The translations under genes were made by a program, and so were the position numbers. From contig NW_027191471.1 of the NCBI RefSeq assembly GCF_011745625.1, forward strand, positions 186,001 to 250,000: DNA of 64,000 bases, written 5' to 3'. Origin of the DNA: Cladosporium halotolerans (lineage: Eukaryota). Position 1 is the first letter of the stretch, and the number at the start of each line of letters is the position of its first letter. The notes beneath the pieces are model-generated. The model was given only the letters and a program-made list of their open reading frames with translations, did not search any database and was not told where the DNA came from. Below, piece after piece: positions 14,384-63,187 of the stretch.

Positions 14384-15914
14384 ATGCGTCTCCTTCTGCC
14401 GGTTGCGCCTGTCCTGGCCTTTGTCCAGTCGGTGATCGCGGCATCATCCAACACTCCCTACAAACCAGTGCCCTACACTCAAGCTCCTTCTTACTACCCC
14501 GGCGCGCCTTGGAACCTCCCTGGTTCCGAGACCAGACCTACCATATGCGAGGTCGCCGCAGCGGGGAAGGATGGAGATGATGCGCCAACGATCATTGAGG
14601 CTTTCCAGAAATGCAAGCGCAATGCCAAAGTCGTCTTTGCGGACACAACATGTAGGTTATCTCACCAGAAGCCAATCGGTGAAGCTCCTTTAGGTGTCTG
14701 CTATGCTTCATCTTGACCTGGAAGTTTGAGCGGCCGGTCGGGTGATGGATAGGTGCCTCATCATCGGATGGCATGCCACTGACACGTCACAGATCACATC
14801 AAGTCAGTGATGGAGATTACTGATCTTTCGAATGTTGAGGTTGAAATCAAAGGCACGCTCCTATGGAGCACCGACATCTCGTACTGGCTCGAGAACTCCC
14901 TCCCCATGGGCTACCAGAATCATTCCACGGCATTCATCTTCGGCGGTGACCAGGTTCACATGTACGGCAACGGAGTGGGGACCTTCAATGGCAACGGTCA
15001 GGTGTGGTACGATCGTTACGGCGACATTAGCAATTACCCACGTCGGCCGCATCAGATTACCTTCAATGGCTTGACCAATTCAGTAATTGAGGGAATCAAC
15101 TTCCTCCAACCTCAGATGTGGACGATGACACTCATCTACTCAAAGAAAGTCCTTCTGCAAGACATCTACGTCAACTCCACCAACGCCAATGGCGGACCCA
15201 ACTTGAACACGGATGGCGCTGACACAATCTACGCTTCCGACATAACTTTCACTCGATGGGTAGTAGACGCTGGAGATGACAACGTCGCCTTCAAAGCCAG
15301 TAAGTACACCGCACGAGCATTCTCCAAGCCCCTTCTCCTTGACAACTGCTTACACACCCATCACAGACAGCACCAACATCCTCGTCGAAGACTGCACCTT
15401 CTACAAAACCACCGGCGTCGCCTACGGCAGCATCGGGCAATTCGACGGCAAATTCGAAGTCCTCGAAGACATCACCGTCCGCAACATCAACGCCTACAAC
15501 AACAAGTACGGCGCGTACGTCAAGACCTGGACCGGCGTGCCGCAGGGCGTGCCGCCCAACGGCGGCGGTGGCGGCCTGGGCTACCTCCGGAACGTGACGA
15601 TGAGCAACTTCAAAGTCGAGAACGCCGAGCAGGGCTTTTACATCACGCAGTGTAATTCGTACTCGGGATTCACGGGCGAGTGCGATACGTCGGAATTTGA
15701 GATTGGAGATATCTCGATCCAGGGGATGAGTGGGACGCTCAAGACGGATGTCGTTGCGAGTATGCAGTGCTCGGGCAAGAATCCGTGTAAGGAGATCAGT
15801 CTTAGAGATGTCTCGTTCACGACTGGAAGAGGGAGAGCGAGTCGGTATCTGTGCAGTAACGTTGAGAGTCCGGACGGTTTTGGGTGCACTGGGGAGGCAC
15901 CAAAGCCTCAGTAA
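14384..15914 (+). CDS. Secreted GH28 exo-acting pectinase (exo-rhamnogalacturonase/RgxB-like); 2 introns
   Basis: Signal peptide MRLLLPVAPVLAFVQSVIA; NTDG, GDD, GSIG, YVKTW motifs; introns about 14652-14792 and 15300-15370; the GHG motif of polygalacturonases is absent. Confidence 0.85.
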
Positions 15915-16139: not shown

Positions 16140-19097
16140 TCACCAATGTTCAGATCTCCAATAGAAGCTTGTATCACCGTCTGTTGCAATGAGAAGGCCA
16201 TGCAAAGGCCTGCCATGTCTCGGGATGATAAGATGATTGGGCAAGATTGCGCCATTTCTGACGAGAAGCTGAACGACGTCTTTGTGGCGCGATGCAGTAG
16301 CTAGTTCCAGAGCTGGGCTATGTAATTTGCCCGAGTTTACTTCCGCGCCGTGCTCCAGCAGCATTTCTACAATACGCGTGTGCCCTTGGTCGGATGCCGC
16401 AATAAGCGCTGGATCACACACGTCGCCGGACGTCATAACGATAGCACCATGGTCCAGTAACTCTTCGACACAATCTGTGGAGCCGGCGCCGGATGCTGCT
16501 TCGAGAGCGGAACCGAGTACTTTGTGAGACGCATCGACGTCGGCGCCAGCCTCCAACAGATGTTGAACGACTGCCAGTCTATCCTTTCTGGAAGCAGCTT
16601 GTAGCGCCGTGCCGAGTTCGTCATTGGATGCGTTAATTTTCGCGCCTCGCCCCAGTAACTCTTTTACGATATTGACATGGCCGTTCGCGGCGGCAACCTG
16701 AAGCCCGGGACCGAGTTTCCCAACAGACAAATTGACATCCGCATCGTACTCCAAGAGAATTCGTACGATATCAAGATGTCCATTGCGAGCAGCTGCTGAA
16801 AGTGCGGAGCCCTGTCGATCGTTGGCAGCGTTGACTTCGGCACCATGCTCAAGCAGCTGCTTTACAATGTCAGTGTAACCCCAGAGGGCAGCAATGTACA
16901 GTGAAGAGCCCAGCCCTTCCCCTAGAATGTTGGGATCGGCGCCATGCTCAAGAAGCTTAGTAACCAGTTGTTGGTTTCCGCTTTCAGCGGCTGCCTGAAG
17001 GGCGGTGCCGTAGAATCCGCCAATTGCATTGACGGGAACCTCTCGCTTGAGCAGCATATCGACCATGTTCCCGCGACCGAAGTGAGTCGCCGCTTGTAAT
17101 GCATTGCCAAAATGCCCACCGGGAGCGTCGATAGGAGCACCAGATTCGATCAGCATCTCGAAGATCCGCTCTCTACCTATAGCCGCTGCCGCTTGGAGAG
17201 GAGTTCCAAAATACCCCTCGTCGGCGGCCAATTCAGTATCGCCATCATTGTAATCGAAAATTACACCACTGGCAAACCTGGGTAACTGCACCAGATCCCC
17301 AGCATTATTCCTCAGTTCGACCTCCAAAAGCGCTGGGGCGTCGATTATGGTGAAGATGTAAGCCTTGGACACATCGCTGGAGAATCGAAACCAATCTTCG
17401 CTCTGCCGCAGATCATTCCATTTCCTCAGATCCTGGAGAGGAAATGCCTCGAGAAAGGGGTCCTGCAAGACTCCATGCGTCTGTGCTAATTCTGAATGAT
17501 ATATCAAGCTTTCTGAGACATATCCCAGAAGTGGGAAGGAAGAGCTTGCATGCTCGCAGAAGCTTCTGGCATCTGGCGACCAGGGATGTGCCAGTAAGTG
17601 TTCTGGCGGGTCTAGAATCTTCAGTGCCTGCTCGATGTACTCATGACATTGGTGTTTGAGTAAATCATGCGCAAGGCCGATGGGGTTGCTGCATAACGCG
17701 CTATCGAGTCGGCCAATACCAGTGGACAACAAGTACTCTCTGACGGTTTCATGAATGAACTGCACCCGGTCCACGATGTCCTGATCGGCTTTAGAGAAGC
17801 TCACGAGGCCCTTGGACGCGTTCAAGATGAAAGATTCAATCTCCTGTAAATCAGGCGGCGCAGATTTCGACAAACAAATCGCTGCAGCCTTGGTGCTGTC
17901 AGCGGTGAGCACCCCGTGGTAAAGCTCCGATGGGGTCAAGGGGCGCTTTGAGAACAAAGTCCAGAGTAGAGTCGATTTGAGGTACTTCGTGTCATCCTTG
18001 CCTCTTTCTAAGATGGCATCCTCAAACAGTGCGTGCACGCCGCCTGGTATCTCATCAAGCTTGCTGAATACTGATTGGGCGTTTCCACGATCGCACTCTT
18101 TGTTCAAGATGCGCACAGCAAGAACAACCCAAAGAAAAACGCCGTGAGCCCTCTTTCCTATCTCTTTCGAGAGGTTGTCTCTAAGGGATGCCGAGACTTT
18201 CAGCGTGCTCTCAACATAGCTCACCATGTCATTGTGATGACCTTCAAGGCTGTCCAATACCAAGTGGACACATTTGGTAATGCTGATGCGAGGATAGTGC
18301 CGGCTTGAGAGACAGGTACGGAAGTGCGTACCAGCTGAGGCTGCGTTGCTTCCAAGATCCTCGAAGAACTCAATCATGTCTCTGATATCATTCTCATCGC
18401 ATTCGTCTAGCGCATCCACGTAGCAGGTAAGCCTTTCGGAGCCCAAGTGTAATACGGCATTGCGGAAGTATTCTTGGAGAAGCGCGATAGGCCATGACTG
18501 GTGCTTCTCCTTCTTACCACGGCCGCATACCTGCTCCAGTCGAGGGCATCGTTTCAAAAGCTGGTGGAGAAGAGAGCGGTACATGCCTTCCACGGAATTC
18601 TCGATTCTGGCCCCTCTCGCATTGAAGAAAAAAGAGACCACAATGTCACTCCGAATGTGTTCCTCAGCGTGCATTGCGGCGCGTTTCATCAAAGTCGACT
18701 TGCCAGCGCCTGGCTTGCCACGGATCCAAAAGAAGCCATGATGTTGCACGAGCTTGGTGTCGTCGCGCCATAGTCGGTATTCCGGTCTCTCGAAAAGCCA
18801 ACGGCACGTATTGCCATGTGCTAATTTGATCGTGTGACGCCGCGTGTCCATGCCATCGAACACCAGCGCCTCCTCCAGTGTCACTGCGCGCAGACTTCCT
18901 GGGTCACCATCATGGCTTGGGTCCTCGGGTCGTGAGAACGACTGGCTCACCGGGCCGTAGAAGATCTGGTTGCCGAAGTGTGCCTTACTGTTCTCACGCG
19001 CGCTGCAGCGACTGAAGACCTGAGGCTGACTGCTGGGGCCGGTTTCCCTCCGCGCTCTCTTGGCTGGCGGCCCCTCAAGTTCGTCTAGGGCGTCCAT
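16140..19097 (-). CDS. Fungal NLR-like protein: short N-terminal motif, NACHT NTPase, about 10 ankyrin repeats
   Basis: 985-aa intronless ORF; Walker A GKPGAGKST, Walker B CYVDALDEC, GVFLWV, FIHETVREYL; repeated G..GTALQAAA..G...IV..LL..GA.VN units. Confidence 0.92.
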   Translation of the reverse strand: MDALDELEGPPAKRARRETGPSSQPQVFSRCSARENSKAHFGNQIFYGPVSQSFSRPEDPSHDGDPGSLRAVTLEEALVFDGMDTRRHTIKLAHGNTCRWLFERPEYRLWRDDTKLVQHHGFFWIRGKPGAGKSTLMKRAAMHAEEHIRSDIVVSFFFNARGARIENSVEGMYRSLLHQLLKRCPRLEQVCGRGKKEKHQSWPIALLQEYFRNAVLHLGSERLTCYVDALDECDENDIRDMIEFFEDLGSNAASAGTHFRTCLSSRHYPRISITKCVHLVLDSLEGHHNDMVSYVESTLKVSASLRDNLSKEIGKRAHGVFLWVVLAVRILNKECDRGNAQSVFSKLDEIPGGVHALFEDAILERGKDDTKYLKSTLLWTLFSKRPLTPSELYHGVLTADSTKAAAICLSKSAPPDLQEIESFILNASKGLVSFSKADQDIVDRVQFIHETVREYLLSTGIGRLDSALCSNPIGLAHDLLKHQCHEYIEQALKILDPPEHLLAHPWSPDARSFCEHASSSFPLLGYVSESLIYHSELAQTHGVLQDPFLEAFPLQDLRKWNDLRQSEDWFRFSSDVSKAYIFTIIDAPALLEVELRNNAGDLVQLPRFASGVIFDYNDGDTELAADEGYFGTPLQAAAAIGRERIFEMLIESGAPIDAPGGHFGNALQAATHFGRGNMVDMLLKREVPVNAIGGFYGTALQAAAESGNQQLVTKLLEHGADPNILGEGLGSSLYIAALWGYTDIVKQLLEHGAEVNAANDRQGSALSAAARNGHLDIVRILLEYDADVNLSVGKLGPGLQVAAANGHVNIVKELLGRGAKINASNDELGTALQAASRKDRLAVVQHLLEAGADVDASHKVLGSALEAASGAGSTDCVEELLDHGAIVMTSGDVCDPALIAASDQGHTRIVEMLLEHGAEVNSGKLHSPALELATASRHKDVVQLLVRNGAILPNHLIIPRHGRPLHGLLIATDGDTSFYWRSEHW

Positions 19098-20488
19098 TGC
19101 GGAAGCCCATATCGGTTGATTATGAGCTTGGATGTTGTAGCGAGTGCTTCAGGAGAATTTTGACAATGTGTTAGAACAAGGCTGAAGGCTGCACTGCGCT
19201 CAGCTTCAGCTACGCGTGCTACGCAACTGACCACTGAGGAACCAGCTGCAAGCGCCTCTGCATGCGCCACCTCAAGACTGACATGAGCTATGGCGTTTCT
19301 AGACCACGAACGCTAAGCCGCTGCAAATCATCATCGCGTTCAACCAGCAGATACAGAAAGGCGATCATGTATCCAACAGCCCATGCTCACACCTGAAGCT
19401 GCTACAGCATGTCGATTGTCAGCCTGTACATTTACCTGAAGAGACTAGCGACGTGCTCTGAATTATTTCGAATATTCTCGAAGCAGTTTCAGAGCTCCAA
19501 TCGGTTGCACATGGACGTTAGGGGCCTCTCCAGAGGTGAGAAGAGGCGCGGGACGTGTTTGGGCACGTTTGAGTTGCAAAGCACGCGACCTCAACGCATA
19601 CTACTCAAGCAAAGCGACTCAGACTTGGCCACGATGCAGATGTGTCTTGTTTCTGCCGCGTCAACAAAAGGGGCCTCACCCGAGCAGCCGATGACATCCG
19701 TGTCTACACGCGCGCATAGCGCCGGGACGCAGGCAGGGTACGCGGTTTTGCCTGAAATCCAGCCCTGAAGCACCTGGACACAACAGGACTTTGGTCCGGC
19801 CCCAGCGTTGAGGTACGGCTAATCGTCTTTGGCAGGCACTATTAGTTGATCGTCGCCCGTGCATTCAATGCTCCTAGATTGACCTGCTGTAAAGCGCTCA
19901 CACACCTGATCAGGGGCTTTGGAAGCATGCAGACGCAAATAGCGTGCGAGATAGTCGGTAGCGAGCCGCTGATTGATTGCGGATGATCGATCCGGAGGGC
20001 CTTGTGCGAGGCTTGGAGGCCAGAGGCACAAGCGAATCAATCTCGCTATACCGAGGCTCAGGCAAGGTGTCCTGATCTGCGATGCTTCAACAATATATGC
20101 ACGATGGCGCCAGACCCTGACTAACCGCCCGGCGATGCTACCCTACTAGCACCACGGCGCTCACGATGCATCGCGTCCAGACTTCGCCCGCGGGAGATTA
20201 TCGTTGGTGATGCGAGTTCGCGTGGGAAGGGCGCAGCAGTGCAGAGGTGCCCAAGGCAACGGAATGTGTGTTACCACGGCCTGCGAAAAGGAAACCCGGG
20301 CCGCGGGCTCCGCTCTGTTCTGGGGAAGAAACCAAATTCCTGGGGACGTCGAATCGGCATTACGGATGTTCCTGCCGGCACCCGGGAGAGTGCTTTCCAC
20401 GCGTTTACCGATTCACTGACCGAACCTTTTTGCCTTTGTCGCGACCTCGCCCTTCTGGAACCTCTCTGTCCACTATGTCGACGATCAG

Positions 20489-33081: not shown

Positions 33082-34202
33082 GATGAGGTGGTGAGAGTGA
33101 AGACGTGGCCTTGTATGTATTTATAGTGTTCAACTCTGGATATTGATCCATGTGTATAATATGAATGTATCTCTAGGGTTCTGTCTCGTAGCTTGCCAAG
33201 GTGTTTTGTTGGGTGCATGTCGCTGCTTGAACGTCTGGCTGGTCAGGTAAACACGTGAGCACTCACAACTTCGGCCAACTCTAAAGGCTTCTTTCTCCGT
33301 CACACACCACTCTCGCGCGATCTCCACAGATCAGACATGGAGTCCCGCATTGTGGTCCGATATCAGGAGCGGGATCACGCCGTCTCTCCACAGAGATGGC
33401 CTGAGCCTCAGCGAACTTCTACCGCTCACATGTACGCCAAACGCAAAATAGCAAAGGCACTATAAGCTTTTCTCAAGAGAGCCGCAAAACAGCCGCGGGC
33501 AAAGGATTCACGAGCGACGCTTCTCCGAAGGAACCTAAACATACGACTGGGAAAACGGTACGTCGGTACCTCTGCCGTCATCCACAGTGGCGTCGCTCGG
33601 ATGGCGGATCTGCCCGCCTCGCATCGCGATCGTACTTTTCGCATCGATAAAGAGATGTGTGAATCATCGCTGAGCTGAGAATGCAAAAATACGCTGCAAT
33701 TATGCGTGAAAGTTGACGAGCATGCCTACTCATGATCCCAGCATCGTTACAACGTGCAGCCGTCACCGCCCAAAGCTCACCAGCAACATCGGTGTGCAGT
33801 TGGCCGGCCGGGCGACTCGGGCGGCAGATAGGTAACGTTTAGGTTTAGCTCACGCCTGCGTTTTTCCAGAACGCCGTCACGCTGAGACGGCCGTGCGCTC
33901 AACGCGTGTGTTGCCATTCTCGTGGCTCATGCCATCACACCCGCTCTGCACCCTCTCGTCAGACCGCCCGGACTACCGCCCGCCGGCGATTGGCCCCTAG
34001 CTGTACCTTGATGATGATGCCACGGGGTCCGGGGACAGATTGCGGCTAGGGGCTCGCATTTTTTTTGGATTTGATAAGGTCTGGGTTGCGATCCAAGTAC
34101 TCAATGTCGTCCTGAGCATCCATCTCCTTTGCTTTCCTTTACCTCATCCTCACCTCTGTCATTCTTTCAGCGTGTTCTTTGCACGTGCAACATACAATCA
34201 CC

Positions 34203-35798
34203 ATGGAATTGCATCGCGTGCACTCCGTCAAGCAGACGGCCATGGCCGCCACCAGCCTCCCTCTTGAACTACAACAGCAGATTTTCTCCTTCCTCGACCC
34301 CAGATCCTTCTACGCGGCTCGCAGTGTGTGCCGTTACTGGCACTTTGCCTCTCAAGACTCAGTGACTCTCGAGAAACAACTCCGAAAGCTTCCTATTCTC
34401 CCGCAGCCCAATGCCCGCCAATCAACAGCCAATGAGCTCCTCAACCTCTTCAACGACGCGGCACATACTCTGATGCTAGGCATGGGAGTCAATCGAGAGG
34501 CACAATCCCCCGAGAGTGTGGAGTCGTCTTTGCAGAAGTGCAACTCTGGACCTCGCATCTGCTCGACAACAAACGGATCGCGAACAGTCACCCTCAATGA
34601 TCGCCAAATCGCCCTTTACGACACCTCCGTAACTCCTGCCCAGCTCCTCACGAAACGTCCCATCAACGACCTCAAGGAGACCGTGGGCAGCGGACCCTGG
34701 CTCAAGATCTCGCCTCCCGCGAACCACGACCTCGCCTTGTCCTCCGATGGCACGCTGCTCGCAATCGCCCAAGAACGCACGATCCAAATCTACGACCTTC
34801 TCGCCGATCCTGATAGCTTCACGGTTAACCAATACATCAGCTCTGCGTCAGGACATTACATTTGCGGCCTCGATTTCGAACAGAATGACCACGTCCTGCG
34901 AGTGCGACTAAGCGGCAGAGGCACAGTCCTGTACTGTGGAGCACCTCCTGCGGACAGCAAGAGCAGCGACAAAGCGGATATTGAGCACTGGAAGAGCAAG
35001 AGCGGACTCCGCCACACACTCCTCGACTCGCACATCATCAGCCTGCCCGAAGACAGCACCACGCCGGACCAGACGGCGCGCCTCTCCGGCCTGCAGCTCC
35101 TCAAACCCTTCCAATCCGGCTACCTCTTCGCCTCGCAGCGCCACGGCGGCGGCCAGAGCAGCCACTACGTGCTGGGCCACATCCGCACATCAACACCGCA
35201 CAATGCCGCCGGCCCTGTCGCCGAGCCCTCCTCCGTCACCATCCTCGCCAAACTCGAATCCTTCCTCTCCGCCTGGGACATGACCCTGCACTGCCTGAAG
35301 AACGCCTCAACGGGCTTCGGGCTGTGGGAAAGCATGCCATCCGCGCACGAGCACCACCCGTCCTTCACTCTGGCGCCCCACGCGAACCTCCTCGTGCTCG
35401 CCGAAAGCGACAAGAAGCGCGTGCGGCCCTCGCCCCTCGCGCAGCTGTACGCCTACCGCCTGCCGACCGAGGCGCATATGAGCGAGACGATCGCGTCTCA
35501 GCAACAGCAGCGCGACGGCAAGTGGGCGAGCCTGGCGTCTTTCCTCGACAGGCTTGAAGCGAGCCAGGGCGAGCGCAGGCGGCGGATCTCGATGAAGCAC
35601 GACGATTTTGAGGCGCGGGTTGCGCCAAAGAAGGATTTCAAGGTCGGCCGTGTGCCGATCTGCTTGGGGAGCTTGGATGGCGAGTTGGTCGAGATGAAGT
35701 TTGACGAGGAGGCGGCGAGGGCTGAGGAGGGTAGGAAGCATGTGCTTAGTGTTGCTACGGCGGGCATGAGCAGGAAGTGGCATCTGGTGGATATGTGA
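34203..35798 (+). CDS. F-box protein with beta-propeller-like region
   Basis: LPLELQQQIFSFLDPRSFYAARSVCRYWH F-box motif; WD-like LALSSDGTLLAIAQERTIQIYDL. Confidence 0.8.
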   Translation: MELHRVHSVKQTAMAATSLPLELQQQIFSFLDPRSFYAARSVCRYWHFASQDSVTLEKQLRKLPILPQPNARQSTANELLNLFNDAAHTLMLGMGVNREAQSPESVESSLQKCNSGPRICSTTNGSRTVTLNDRQIALYDTSVTPAQLLTKRPINDLKETVGSGPWLKISPPANHDLALSSDGTLLAIAQERTIQIYDLLADPDSFTVNQYISSASGHYICGLDFEQNDHVLRVRLSGRGTVLYCGAPPADSKSSDKADIEHWKSKSGLRHTLLDSHIISLPEDSTTPDQTARLSGLQLLKPFQSGYLFASQRHGGGQSSHYVLGHIRTSTPHNAAGPVAEPSSVTILAKLESFLSAWDMTLHCLKNASTGFGLWESMPSAHEHHPSFTLAPHANLLVLAESDKKRVRPSPLAQLYAYRLPTEAHMSETIASQQQQRDGKWASLASFLDRLEASQGERRRRISMKHDDFEARVAPKKDFKVGRVPICLGSLDGELVEMKFDEEAARAEEGRKHVLSVATAGMSRKWHLVDM

Positions 35799-36119
35799 GC
35801 TGAATTCTGCATTGACGACGCGTACAGAATGGAGCCGAGTTACTGGCTCCAGATAGATTATAGACTATAGACCTTTTGAGATACCCCAACATATAGACAA
35901 ATTCGAGTTAATGACACATGCATACCAAATTCCACACATTACTTTACGAGAAAGTCAAGTGATTCGTACCTCAAACAAGATAGATCTTCAGCATGTACAA
36001 GCATACCGCTCGAATGCGCATTCCAATCGAGAGCAGCAGCCCTCACTCCTCACCCATCGTGGGATTCTTTCGCACTTCGCCTCAATTCCGCGTCGATTCC
36101 CCCAGCTCCAGAATCGTTC

Positions 36120-36593
36120 TCACTCCAACAACCCAGCCTTATGCCAGCTGAACCCCTTCCTATCATTCGTCGTCCCCGAAGTCTTCGAGATCTCGACGAC
36201 AGTGTCGCCGTCCTTCTTCGTCTCAGTGTCCTGCTCTTCCTGCCTCTTCAGAATGGCCTCGGCGGCTCCAGCCTTGTGCCATTTGAAGCCCTTCCTATCG
36301 TTCGTCGTCCCGGAAGTCTTGGAGATTTCAACGACGGTGTCGCCGTCTTTCTTCGTCTCGGTGTTTTGCTCCTCTTGCCTCTTTGTGAAGGTTTCGCCCG
36401 GGGACGGTTCGAAGCCGCGGACGACGTCGAGGGGGTCGATGGCGCGAGCGACGTTTGTCTGGGGCGACGGTCAGTATTTCGCCTCCAAAGTGTTTATGCC
36501 AAAAGACAATCGACTCACCTGTGTCTGCGTCACGGGCAGAGCCTCAATCGCGACGCTGAAGAGCGCGAGGGCGAAAGTCGAAGAAAGACGCAT
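36120..36593 (-). CDS. Small secreted Kex2-processed repeat precursor, 137 aa, two near-identical repeats
   Basis: Exon 1 36519-36593 is a signal peptide; intron 36459-36518 (GTGAGT...CTGAC...CAG); exon 2 36120-36458 has KR-QEEQxTETKKDGDTVVEISKTSGTTNDRKGFxWHKAG twice, with many synonymous differences between copies. Confidence 0.85.
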
Positions 36594-36846
36594 TTTTGGC
36601 GGGTAAAGAACGTGGGGTTAATGAGTGACTGAACGATAAACAAAAAGTGTATTATAGAGTTATGGAGGTCGTGAAGAAGTAGGCGATACCCATCGCGCAG
36701 TATCCTTTGTGTATGGACGCGCGGACGAGCAAGGCCTACTCGCAAATGCTGATCGTCATCCCATGTGGGTAGGGATCGACGCAGGGGCGTAGGAAGAACG
36801 CATGTAAAGAAAAGAAGTGGTGATACCGATCTGAGCATCCTTTTTT

Positions 36847-37190
36847 CTACTCAGACTTCTTCGAGTCAGAGACTGGGTGCCAGCTGAAACCGACTCTGTC
36901 TCCAGTGGTGCCGGCAGACTTGGTCGTCGTGATCCTGTCGTTGCCGTATGTGGTTTCGGTCGTGTCTCCTTTCTGGCCGAGAAGATTGTGCAGAGTATCC
37001 CCCAGACCAAGACCGCGAGATACTATGTGTCCGTCATGTTTAGCTACTTGATTGCTGTTGAGCTGGTTCACGTGTTAGCGGAATCTCCGATGTGATGGCC
37101 ATCTTCGCAGCTTACGCCTGATTCCGCCACAGGACGCCCCTCAACAAGTGTGCCGACTAGAGCCAGGGTAAGAGCGGAGAGGAAACGCAT
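36847..37190 (-). CDS. Small secreted protein, 96 aa, paralog of the adjacent repeat precursor
   Basis: Exon 1 37116-37190 is a signal peptide; intron 37063-37115 (GTAAGC...GCTAAC...CAG); exon 2 ends TKSAGTTGDRVGFSWHPVSDSKKSE. Confidence 0.82.
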
Positions 37191-37791
37191 GATGAGCTGG
37201 GGAGTTTTGAATGAGAGACACAGCGTATCGCTTCGATAATGATATCTTTGAGTAAAGGGCGGAGTATAGTATGAAGAAAATGTCTTGCCCATCGCAACGT
37301 CTTTTCTATGCGGAAACATATTGAAGCATTGATACCGTCACCTTACGCTAAGAAACGTTTTTCCATCCCTTTCTCAATATCAGCGACGTGAAGACCGGCA
37401 TCAAGAATGACGATTGCGGATCCGTGGTGTCGTCCACGAACAGTGGGGCCAACGTCGGCGGAAATGAATGGCTTCTATCTCCTAGCGCATCCTGCAGGGT
37501 TGCTGCTATTGTGCTCGAACGACCTTACCATTCACTTACTTTCGGATGCCCAAGAAGGATCAGTAATTATATTGCTTGGATTGCGTGAGGTACTCCGTTC
37601 TTGGCCCCTTGGGGACACCACGGTGCTCGTCAAGGTGATCAAAGTCGAAGAGCTCAACGTTAGGCAAAGCAGAAGCCCACTTCAAACCTCCAGAGCGCGG
37701 TAGCCCAACACGAAAGAACTTCTGGCAAAAAGACACCACTGCCAGAATAGCAGCTGTGACTAGGTGAGCAGGGCAAAAGAACAAAAGATGA

Positions 37792-61411: not shown

Positions 61412-63187
61412 ATGCAGTTTTTCCTCTTGGGTGACCAGTCGTCTTCGAGAGACATCGAAGTCGACGCGAATGGCAGCATCTCTGATCTGCAAGGCCTAGT
61501 CGCCGCTCACTTTGCCATTGTCGAGCCTAAAGGTAAGCGATACCAAGATTCAGGCGCAAGCCTCCCGCCAACCCAAAGAGCTTATACTGACGGCCATCGA
61601 AGGGGTCGGATTTGCCAACACCTCTGGACCTCTCAGCAATATCCAGGACATCTGCTCTTCCAGCGAACCAATTTCCATCACAATCGACGGCCATGCCGTA
61701 CGAGACGCTCCTGGACCTAAAGGACTACCGTACATTGGAAACTACTTCGAAGTCTACCCCGACCACCTGGGCAACCACCAGCGTCTGTTCGAGACCTATG
61801 GACCCTTTATCAAGACTCAGAGTCTCGGTCGCGTCACATACTTGACCAACGACCCTGCGATTGCAGCAGTTGTATTCGCCGAGTCCGACTTTTTCACAAA
61901 GAAGATCAACAAGGACCACCCCTTGTACCCCATCAAGAACCAGGAAGCTGGCGTGTTCCTGGGTGATACCGATACCGAGGCATGGAAGGTCGCACATAAG
62001 TTCCTGCCTCCTGCTCTCGGCCCCAAGGCCGTCCGCCACTATGCCCCTACAATGCAAAAGACCGTCGAGAACGCTTTCAACGTCTTCGACCAGCTCGATG
62101 AAGAGGGCAAAGCCTGGAACGTCTACCACTACATGCTCAAGCTTGGTTCTCAAGCAGTCGGCAAAATCACCCTTGGCATGGACTTCAACCACTTCTCCTC
62201 GCCCAGAGCCTACCCCGATGAGATGATTCGCATCATCGCAGAGTCTCTCGAGTTGAACAAGCAGATTGCATCCAAAGGTGACTGGTACGCTAAGCTGCCC
62301 TTCGGTCCTCCTCAGCGACTGAGGAACCTGGCCGACCGCATGATGGTTCTTGTCGGCGAATCGATCAAGAGGGCTGAGAGCAGCGGCGCACACGATCTGC
62401 CTCTGCAGGATGCCGCTCTGGAGGCATCTAACATGGTCGGTAAGTACACACGCATCATCTCCCGTCCGCGACATAGCAGACACTAACCCCAAGCACAGAC
62501 TACGCCATCCGCGCCACCGACAACAAGGGCGACAAGCTCCCCCGAACCAGCCTCGTAGAAGCCCTCGTCGTCGCCACCGGCGCCGGCTTCACAACGACCA
62601 GCTCCCTCCTCTCCTGGCTCATCTACGGCCTCGTGACCTACCCCGGCATGCAAGAGCGCCTGCTGCAAGAACTCGTCGACGCCGGCGTCGACGAGAACAC
62701 CCAGTTCAACGCCGACGTGACCGACGCCCTCCCCTTCCTCGACAAGTACATCAAGGAGACCCAGCGCCGGCACAACCCGTCCTTCCAGCCCGCGCGCACG
62801 GCCAAGACCGACCTCATCCTGCCCGGCGGCTACCGCGTGCCCGCCGACGCCGTCGTCATCCCCGCCCTGCACCACATCCACAACAACCCGGCGCTCTGGG
62901 ACAACCCCGCGACGTTCAACCCGGACCGCTGGGACACGGAGGCGGTCAAGAACAGGCACAAGGCGGCGTACATCCCGTTCGCGACGGGCAAGCGCATGTG
63001 CATCGGGTTCAACTTCGCGCTGCAGGAGGTCAAGATTTTCCTGCCCAAGCTGCTGTGGAGGTACAAGTTCGTGCGCGAGGAGAGCGGCACGATCGAGTAC
63101 GATCCGATGTTCCAGCTGATCCGGCCGAACAACCTGTACGTGCGCGCGGAGAGGCGCGTCAAGTGGCCGCCGCGGTCGGAGGCGTGA
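61412..63187 (+). CDS. Cytochrome P450 without an N-terminal membrane anchor (CYP540-like); 2 introns
   Basis: PGPKGLPYIGN, AGFTTT I-helix, KETQR (ExxR), FNPDRW, PFATGKRMCIG heme motif; introns about 61533-61602 and 62440-62498. Confidence 0.9.

Follow-up and report, generated by a model that had tools for sequence, protein, structure and literature searches.

A tandem pair of small genes in Cladosporium halotolerans: a probable Kex2-processed repeat protein and its single-unit paralogue

We analyzed a stretch of 64,000 nucleotides from Cladosporium halotolerans (NCBI RefSeq assembly GCF_011745625.1, contig NW_027191471.1, positions 186,001 to 250,000; hereafter the window) and studied two small tandem genes on its minus strand at positions 36120-37190, a span that runs from the stop codon of gene A to the ATG of gene B. 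Our results indicate that the product of gene A is most likely a Kex2-processed repeat protein (KEP), a class in which we place it because a dibasic KR/RR-Q sequence precedes every unit of its repeat. Judged from sequence, gene A belongs to a new KEP family, apparently centred on Cladosporium, and gene B is an old single-unit paralogue of A. The initial annotation of this locus, made from the letters of the window, had treated it as possibly novel; the family is indeed new, but it falls within a class that was already described, that of the KEPs.

The two genes are separated by about 250 bp. Both had been proposed in the initial annotation as same-strand genes with a 75-nt signal-peptide exon followed by a phase-0 intron after codon 25, and our analysis confirmed these coordinates and models. 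Gene A runs from the ATG at 36593 to the stop at 36120 and encodes a protein of 137 amino acids (aa); gene B runs from the ATG at 37190 to the stop at 36847, likewise on the minus strand, and encodes 96 aa. The pair had been described as hidden, which appears accurate for gene B only. The spliced model of gene A is present at NCBI as [quoted passage not shown] (P0003), with 100% identity and coverage. For exon 2 of gene B, a collection of 5.8 billion proteins contained no protein of 39-125 aa sharing three 5-mers with it, and gene B therefore appears unannotated. The putative signal peptide of gene A has an M-R start, a hydrophobic 12-aa window with a Kyte-Doolittle value of 2.15, and small residues at positions -3/-1 (IEA-LP); the best Kyte-Doolittle value in exon 1 of gene B is 2.05. 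The first exons of the two genes are identical at 9/25 residues, and BLASTP aligned the second exons across 33-34 aa with E values of 2e-7 and 1e-6. The features of the pair are as follows (X1 and X4 are public sequencing runs; GRAVY is the grand average of hydropathy and pI the isoelectric point).

36519..36593, minus strand: gene A exon 1, 75 nt, 25 codons, MRLSSTFALALFSVAIEALPVTQTQ; putative signal peptide with a likely cleavage point after IEA; matches the N-terminus of P0003
36459..36518, minus strand: gene A intron, 60 nt, phase 0, GTGAGT..TACTGAC (branch-like)..CAG; exactly skipped in X1 and X4 contigs
36120..36458, minus strand: gene A exon 2, 112 codons plus stop, with pro-region, KR, unit 1, KR, unit 2 (P0001)
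36378..36383, minus strand: gene A dibasic site 1, FTKR-Q, which closes the pro-region
36249..36377, minus strand: gene A unit 1, predicted 43-aa peptide QEEQN...FKWHKAGAAEAIL; pI 5.7, GRAVY -1.17
36243..36248, minus strand: gene A dibasic site 2, ILKR-Q, which separates units 1 and 2
36123..36242, minus strand: gene A unit 2, predicted 40-aa peptide QEEQD...FSWHKAGLLE; 90% identity to unit 1
37116..37190, minus strand: gene B exon 1, 75 nt, 25 codons, MRFLSALTLALVGTLVEGRPVAESG; putative signal peptide with a likely cleavage point after VEG
37063..37115, minus strand: gene B intron, 53 nt, phase 0, GTAAGC..GCTAAC..CAG; skipped in one X4 contig
36847..37062, minus strand: gene B exon 2, 71 codons plus stop (P0002), with a conserved SRGL segment and one C-terminal unit; free of KR and RR
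36877..36975, minus strand: gene B single unit, QKGDTTETTYGNDRITTTKSAGTTGDRVGFSWH; matches both A units by BLASTP and groups with the B units in the unit tree

Exon 2 of gene A is composed of a pro-region ending in FTKR, a 43-aa unit, KR, and a 40-aa unit. Tandem Repeats Finder reported a period of 135 nt for this region, with 1.9 copies, 86% matches, and no indels. The initial annotation had quoted three copies of one motif in the two proteins; all three strings are present letter for letter, but two of them are therefore copies of a single repeat inside gene A.

We compared the sites that precede the units in 10 full-length A-type proteins, which together hold 25 units: the protein of the window, P0019 of C. 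allicinum, and those of eight related loci from a metagenome scan (L001-L008). The sequence [KR]R-Q lies directly before every unit (25/25), with R at P1 and Q at P1' throughout and with K (11) or R (14) at P2. At P4, 23/25 sites have L (12), I (7), V (3), or F (1), compared with a share of 17% for LIVFM among all residues; Kex2 prefers aliphatic residues at P4. P2' is L or G at 13/25 sites. We observed 25 [KR]R[QE] triplets; when each protein was shuffled, 2000 shuffles gave 1.2 triplets on average and at most 6. [KR]R occurs elsewhere than in KRRQ only once, as WRRAG in L006. The site lies 19-27 residues from the conserved core of the unit, and the linkers vary in sequence, whereas the site is fixed, which is the signature expected of a selected kexin site. 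The invariant Gln at the new N-terminus suggests capping by pyroglutamate. In a wider set of 28 sequences and 63 units, which includes some redundancy, [KR]R precedes 54 units, and the upstream sequence is absent for 5 because the called protein is truncated; in P0013, E replaces Q after one site.

By definition, KEPs combine a signal peptide with internal repeats that are separated by KEX2 sites (PMC6339444). Gene A has a signal peptide, recognized heuristically, two near-identical repeats (90%), and the KR sites FTKR-Q and ILKR-Q. It thus shares with KEPs in the sense of Le Marquer et al. 2019 (PMC6339444) and Umemura 2020 (PMC7329392) the signal peptide, the pro-region, the tandem near-identical units, and KR/RR before each of them, and, having no tailoring genes nearby, it resembles the "linear, minimally modified" KEP peptides. 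Its N-terminal Gln recalls Coprinopsis cinerea, in which KEP peptides that begin with Gln were detected in the pyro-Q form (PMC9769878). Gene A differs from these KEPs in having only 2 units, which are long (37-53 aa in the family) and predicted to form a beta sheet, and in its adjoining conserved paralogue, gene B, which bears the unit without cleavage sites.

Based on the sequence features of gene A, we infer secretion, cleavage, pyroglutamate formation, and any extracellular role, either associated with the cell surface or wall or in signalling. The signal peptide would carry the protein into the endoplasmic reticulum, a late-Golgi kexin would cut after FTKR and ILKR, and a Kex1-type carboxypeptidase would trim the basic residues. 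Two hydrophilic, Cys-free peptides of 43 and 40 aa would then be secreted, the N-terminal Gln of each probably cyclising to pyroglutamate and the core of about 24 aa being predicted as a small three-stranded antiparallel beta sheet. The locus would in this way make a released, multi-copy form (A) and an uncut form (B) of one module.

We found no paper describing this peptide family in our literature searches. The motif strings did not occur in the available supplements of the KEP surveys PMC6339444 and PMC7329392, which consist mostly of accession lists and make this a weak absence. In its available form, Table S1 of Umemura 2020 (PMC7329392) lists no Cladosporium, Fulvia, or Passalora assembly, only Rachicladosporium.

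A signal peptide followed by KR-flanked repeats is also the layout of the ustiloxin and phomopsin precursors (dikaritins), which belong to the peptides made on the ribosome and modified after translation (RiPPs), and of the yeast alpha-factor precursors with their prepro-repeat organization. It is nevertheless highly improbable that gene A encodes a dikaritin-type RiPP precursor or an alpha-factor-like sex pheromone, and both readings are disfavoured by several observations. DUF3328 genes lie on average 3.09 genes from ust-type RiPP precursors (PMC7329392). We scanned 84 open frames of the 64-kb window against Pfam, of which 17 were chosen stop to stop (at least 98 aa, 23-48 kb) and 67 lay elsewhere (at least 140 aa), and found no DUF3328/UstYa or tyrosinase among them, although short exons could escape such a scan. 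The units, at 37-53 aa, are long and lack the short Tyr-x-Ile core (YxIx). As to a pheromone, gene A has no XA/XP dipeptides for Ste13, its P1' residue being Q and P2' mostly L or G; it has no match to Pfam MF_alpha_N or MF_alpha, the latter matching 0/20 family members; and its units are 2-4 times longer than those of alpha-factor, alpha-pheromone peptides measuring 9-24 aa according to PMC6339444. A feature search of the ESM Atlas gave scores of at most 0.86, below the bar of 0.9, and so provides leads only, among them an MF_alpha cluster (0.81), which would favour a pheromone, and a cluster in which 19% of the members carry Bacteriocin_CLI3235. Pfam returned nothing above the gathering score for A, B, 20 family members, P0016, or P0017. 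These data agree with the initial annotation, which had recognized no known pheromone or RiPP core.

Next, we examined splicing by aligning contigs from four public runs (four studies) to positions 35850-37450. Exact skips of both introns, as the initial annotation had predicted them, were present. The gene A intron is skipped (36458 joined to 36519, 60 nt, plus-strand ends CT..AC) in an X4 contig of 2186 nt, with 79 letters on the shorter side of the joint, and in an X1 contig of 57 nt, with 27 letters. The gene B intron is skipped (37062 joined to 37116, 53 nt) in one X4 contig, recorded as "between: not known". The introns are retained in X2, X6, and other X1 contigs, as expected of DNA or unspliced RNA. 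We take X1 and X4 to contain cDNA because these GT-AG skips are exact at the predicted sites. The runs differ by 1-10% from the window and therefore come from other strains or close relatives. Both genes are real and spliced.

The same contigs yielded further observations on the locus. One X4 contig ends at 36713, where it runs into a loose end resembling an Illumina adapter, and X4 leaves about 36714-36819, between the genes, almost without cover, a stretch that the DNA-like runs do cover. The end at 36713 could mark the 5' end of the A transcript, with a 5' untranslated region of about 120 nt and separate transcription of B and A; this is only a hint. The 2186-nt X4 contig holds spliced gene A plus about 1.5 kb past 35850 that extends into a convergent F-box gene (34116-35795, plus strand), so the two transcripts may overlap at their 3' ends, or the assembler may have merged both. 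Relative to the window, X1 and X4 have 10 additional nt behind 36060, in the 3' flank of gene A; this insertion occurs in two variants that differ by one letter.

Relatives of gene A were collected by profile. A three-unit profile run against 1.84 billion cluster representatives recovered 16 proteins with E <= 1e-3, and for 11 of these E was <= 1e-10. A profile of 11 members run against the 5.8-billion collection recovered 19 proteins. Only two of them carry an organism name, C. halotolerans for one and C. allicinum for the other (P0019, with 172 aa and three units); the remaining ones come from JGI, ENA, and Logan assemblies. The metagenome scan revealed nine related loci, L001-L009. We rejected P0015 (2768 aa, E 5.7e-8), one of the 16, as a spurious member, since it is a bacterial adhesin of the cadherin/Big_9/RTX type whose match is confined to profile positions 13-30 and recurs 13 times. 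In P0004 (107 aa, from a 645-nt ENA contig), an unrelated N-terminal half is joined to a unit 2 with 100% identity to that of the window; this is probably a miscalled frame on a short contig.

The A genes of L001-L008 share one structure: a 75-nt signal-peptide-like exon 1 (8/8) followed by a phase-0 intron of 48-97 nt with donor GTGAGA or GTAAGC, branch CTAAC or CTGAC, and acceptor CAG. The signal-peptide layout of gene A is found in P0019, P0009, and L001-L008 alike. The number of units in A-type relatives is 2 or 3, with three in P0019 and L005-L008. The A-type gene at L009:885-1523 has the same start and shifts frame after unit 1, units 2 and 3 lying in the other frame; this change is either an assembly error or a pseudogene.

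The convergent F-box gene that lies downstream of A in the window is present in L004, L007, and L002 with about 75% aa identity, and part of it in L003 and L009. Because this neighbour is kept, these loci are orthologous and derive from related species. The A proteins of the metagenome loci share 34-48% identity with the A protein of the window, compared with about 75% for the F-box protein, and A therefore evolves much faster than its neighbour.

In an alignment of 28 copies of the unit (A3), G, T, D, G, and W are invariant and an upstream G is nearly so. The initial annotation had delimited a core of about 16 aa; the conserved module proved to be larger, about 24 aa, approximately DG.N.V.T.SKS.GTT.D[KR].G[YF].W, inside units of 37-53 aa. 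Across the 10 A-type proteins the units contain no Cys, with a GRAVY of -0.45 to -1.33 and a net charge of -5 to +4.

The core is under purifying selection. Exon 2 gave ratios of nonsynonymous to synonymous substitution rates (dN/dS) of 0.27-0.52 (Nei-Gojobori, seven locus pairs). The core was lower than the rest in 6/7 pairs, with values of 0.07-0.57 for the core and 0.33-0.82 for the rest; the exception was L005/L006 (core 0.57, rest 0.40). The three pairs from the 2-unit lineage had core values of 0.07-0.14, and those from the 3-unit lineage 0.28-0.57. Among the variants listed, at least six strain variants fall in the coding sequence of A, five at synonymous third positions and one an I to V change in the linker. 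The initial annotation was therefore correct in describing the core as Cys-free (0 Cys in 10 proteins) and under selection.

We then predicted the structure of the unit. AlphaFold2, run on the unit alignment for gene A unit 2, produced three antiparallel strands (residues 3-11, 14-22, and 28-35) with a mean predicted local distance difference test (pLDDT) value of 74. For the whole exon-2 A protein the pLDDT was 39, with the same strands in each unit and no confident packing predicted between units. A Foldseek search of the unit against the PDB assigned no fold, the best E value being 0.48 for generic three-stranded sheets such as Rv1738, and the sequence profile matched nothing in the PDB below E 0.84. 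A complex prediction with four unit copies scored 0.02, which we took as evidence neither way.

A unit predicted to fold autonomously is what a secreted, uncut tandem-domain protein would contain, its two or three beta-sheet mini-domains staying joined, with [KR]R-Q kept for a reason other than cleavage and with gene B as the one-domain version. This arrangement would also account for the B-type proteins, in which the unit has no dibasic site and, in the relatives, is borne by a Ser/Thr-rich spacer, as is often the case for a domain, and the invariant G, T, D, G, and W sit at turn and core places, which suits a constraint on fold better than a linear peptide signal. However, 25/25 sites combine R at P1 with K/R at P2 and a P1' Gln, and 23/25 have an aliphatic or aromatic P4, all within linkers that otherwise vary in sequence and length; this pattern resembles a selected kexin site and is hard to explain otherwise, and no packing between units was predicted. 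We consider an uncut protein unlikely.

Several points weigh against the proposal that gene A encodes a KEP. The signal peptide was called from hydrophobicity and the -3/-1 rule. The first site is monobasic, NR-Q or AR-Q, in 4/63 units, all from one lineage (P0010, P0023, P0024, and P0011). With 2 repeats, gene A is below the threshold of at least 3 repeats in the pipeline of Le Marquer et al. (PMC6339444); this threshold is a cut-off that limits false positives and has no biological meaning as a criterion, the paper itself noting that alpha-pheromone precursors can have fewer, and it may explain the absence of such genes from the lists. KEP peptides were still present in kex knockouts of C. 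cinerea (PMC9769878), and dependence on one kexin is therefore not a given. Since the unit is predicted to fold alone and the gene B unit has no cleavage site, a beads-on-a-string protein that stays uncut is possible. Finally, that X1 and X4, the runs with the spliced contigs, derive from RNA is a guess, and the joint across the B intron comes from a single contig with 30 letters on its shorter side.

B-type relatives of gene B were found in P0016, P0017, and genes of L002, L003, L005, L007, and L009. Common to them are the signal-peptide exon, an intron in phase 0, the invariant segment R-G-L, and a single unit at the C-terminus with the pattern ..TYGND.I......GT.GDR.GF.W.PV.. (alignment A5). 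The signal-peptide exon measures 87 nt in L002, L003, L005, and L007 versus 75 nt in the window. A Ser/Thr-rich spacer between the R-G-L segment and the unit is missing from B of the window and spans about 50-110 aa in relatives (L002, L003, L005, L007, and P0017), being longest, at about 110 residues, in L005 and L007. All B-type proteins lack a dibasic site in front of the unit, and no wall-anchor signal was seen in B.

The age of the duplication is reflected in a tree of the units, built on 45 columns and with many unresolved forks. Six B units (that of the window and 5 from related loci) form one clade with support of 93/95, apart from all A units. The A units group by position (unit 1 with unit 1, and so on), except for the two units of the window, which are each other's closest relatives (100/100), pointing to a recent intragenic duplication or conversion. 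The same-strand tandem of B followed by A is present in 5/9 loci (L002, L003, L005, L007, and L009). No B gene was found upstream of A within 3.1 kb in L004 or within 0.9 kb in L001, two loci of nearly the same lineage, which keeps the A gene and the F-box neighbour, and DNA similarity to L002 stops just upstream of A. L006 and L008 include only about 330 nt upstream and are uninformative on the tandem. The old duplication suggested by the initial annotation is borne out by the B clade and by the tandem kept at loci that share the F-box neighbour.

If gene A is cleaved as a KEP, its released units might act at the surface of the fungus itself, in the manner of Ustilago maydis Rep1, from which Kex2 releases 37-aa peptides that stay at the hyphal surface (PMC6339444 and PMC7329392). 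Such a role would be structural or wall-modifying, and not that of a diffusible signal, perhaps linked to halotolerance, and we regard it as a tentative possibility. The units (37-53 aa) are similar in length and proposed processing to the Rep1 peptides, both are beta-rich, the predicted structure of the unit being all beta strand, and Le Marquer et al. speculate on a wall role for the KEP peptides of osmo- and xerotolerant fungi (PMC6339444). The Ser/Thr-rich spacer of the paralogue is typical of wall and secreted glycoproteins, and an aromatic face could arise from the conserved [YF]-x-W pair, which lies on a single strand. On the other hand, the Cladosporium peptides are strongly hydrophilic (GRAVY -0.45 to -1.33, charge -5 to +4) and not obviously surface-active, B has no visible wall-anchor signal, and Rep1 is a basidiomycete protein with many more repeats, whose likeness to gene A is one of peptide size and processing as reported in papers. 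By analogy, the unit size, the beta character, and the spacer-borne paralogue lean toward a cell-surface or wall role like that of Rep1; a diffusible ligand would suit the hydrophilicity and the rapid evolution of surface positions as well.

An improbable but specific extension of these ideas is that the two genes form a two-form system. Tethered copies (B, which in relatives lies on a Ser/Thr-rich, presumably O-glycosylated spacer) and kexin-released, pyroglutamate-capped copies (A) of a new Cys-free, three-stranded beta mini-domain of about 30 aa would address the same extracellular target, for example a wall polysaccharide through the [YF]-x-W face, or would pair with each other by their strands. 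The ratio of tethered to free copies would tune a surface property, and the system would be a Cladosporium-specific invention, possibly tied to low water activity.

KEP-derived peptides are widespread in fungi, and almost none has a known function. The present locus offers a compact case, with few units and two close genes in a culturable halotolerant mould, and gene B provides a built-in comparison of the same module with and without cleavage sites. The finding by itself overturns nothing. It shows that published KEP pipelines and routine annotation alike miss KEPs with 2 repeats and small genes split by an intron, of which gene B is an example.

Near the pair, the Pfam scan identified a PXA/RGS/PX sorting nexin, CBF/Mak21, a class II tRNA synthetase, the F-box protein, an emp24 fragment, an acyl-CoA thioesterase, and hydrolases, neighbours that can be described as housekeeping. 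In this setting the suggestion of the initial annotation that the peptides are effectors or host-peptide mimics found no support, the comparison with plant peptide families having been an informal one. Farther off, the window contains an MFS transporter and the following genes.

14783-15911, plus strand: GH28 polygalacturonase-like gene, intron-split (Pfam scan)
16143-19148, minus strand: NACHT-like (NPHP3_N) ankyrin-repeat protein (Pfam scan)
61500-63184, plus strand: cytochrome P450 (Pfam scan)

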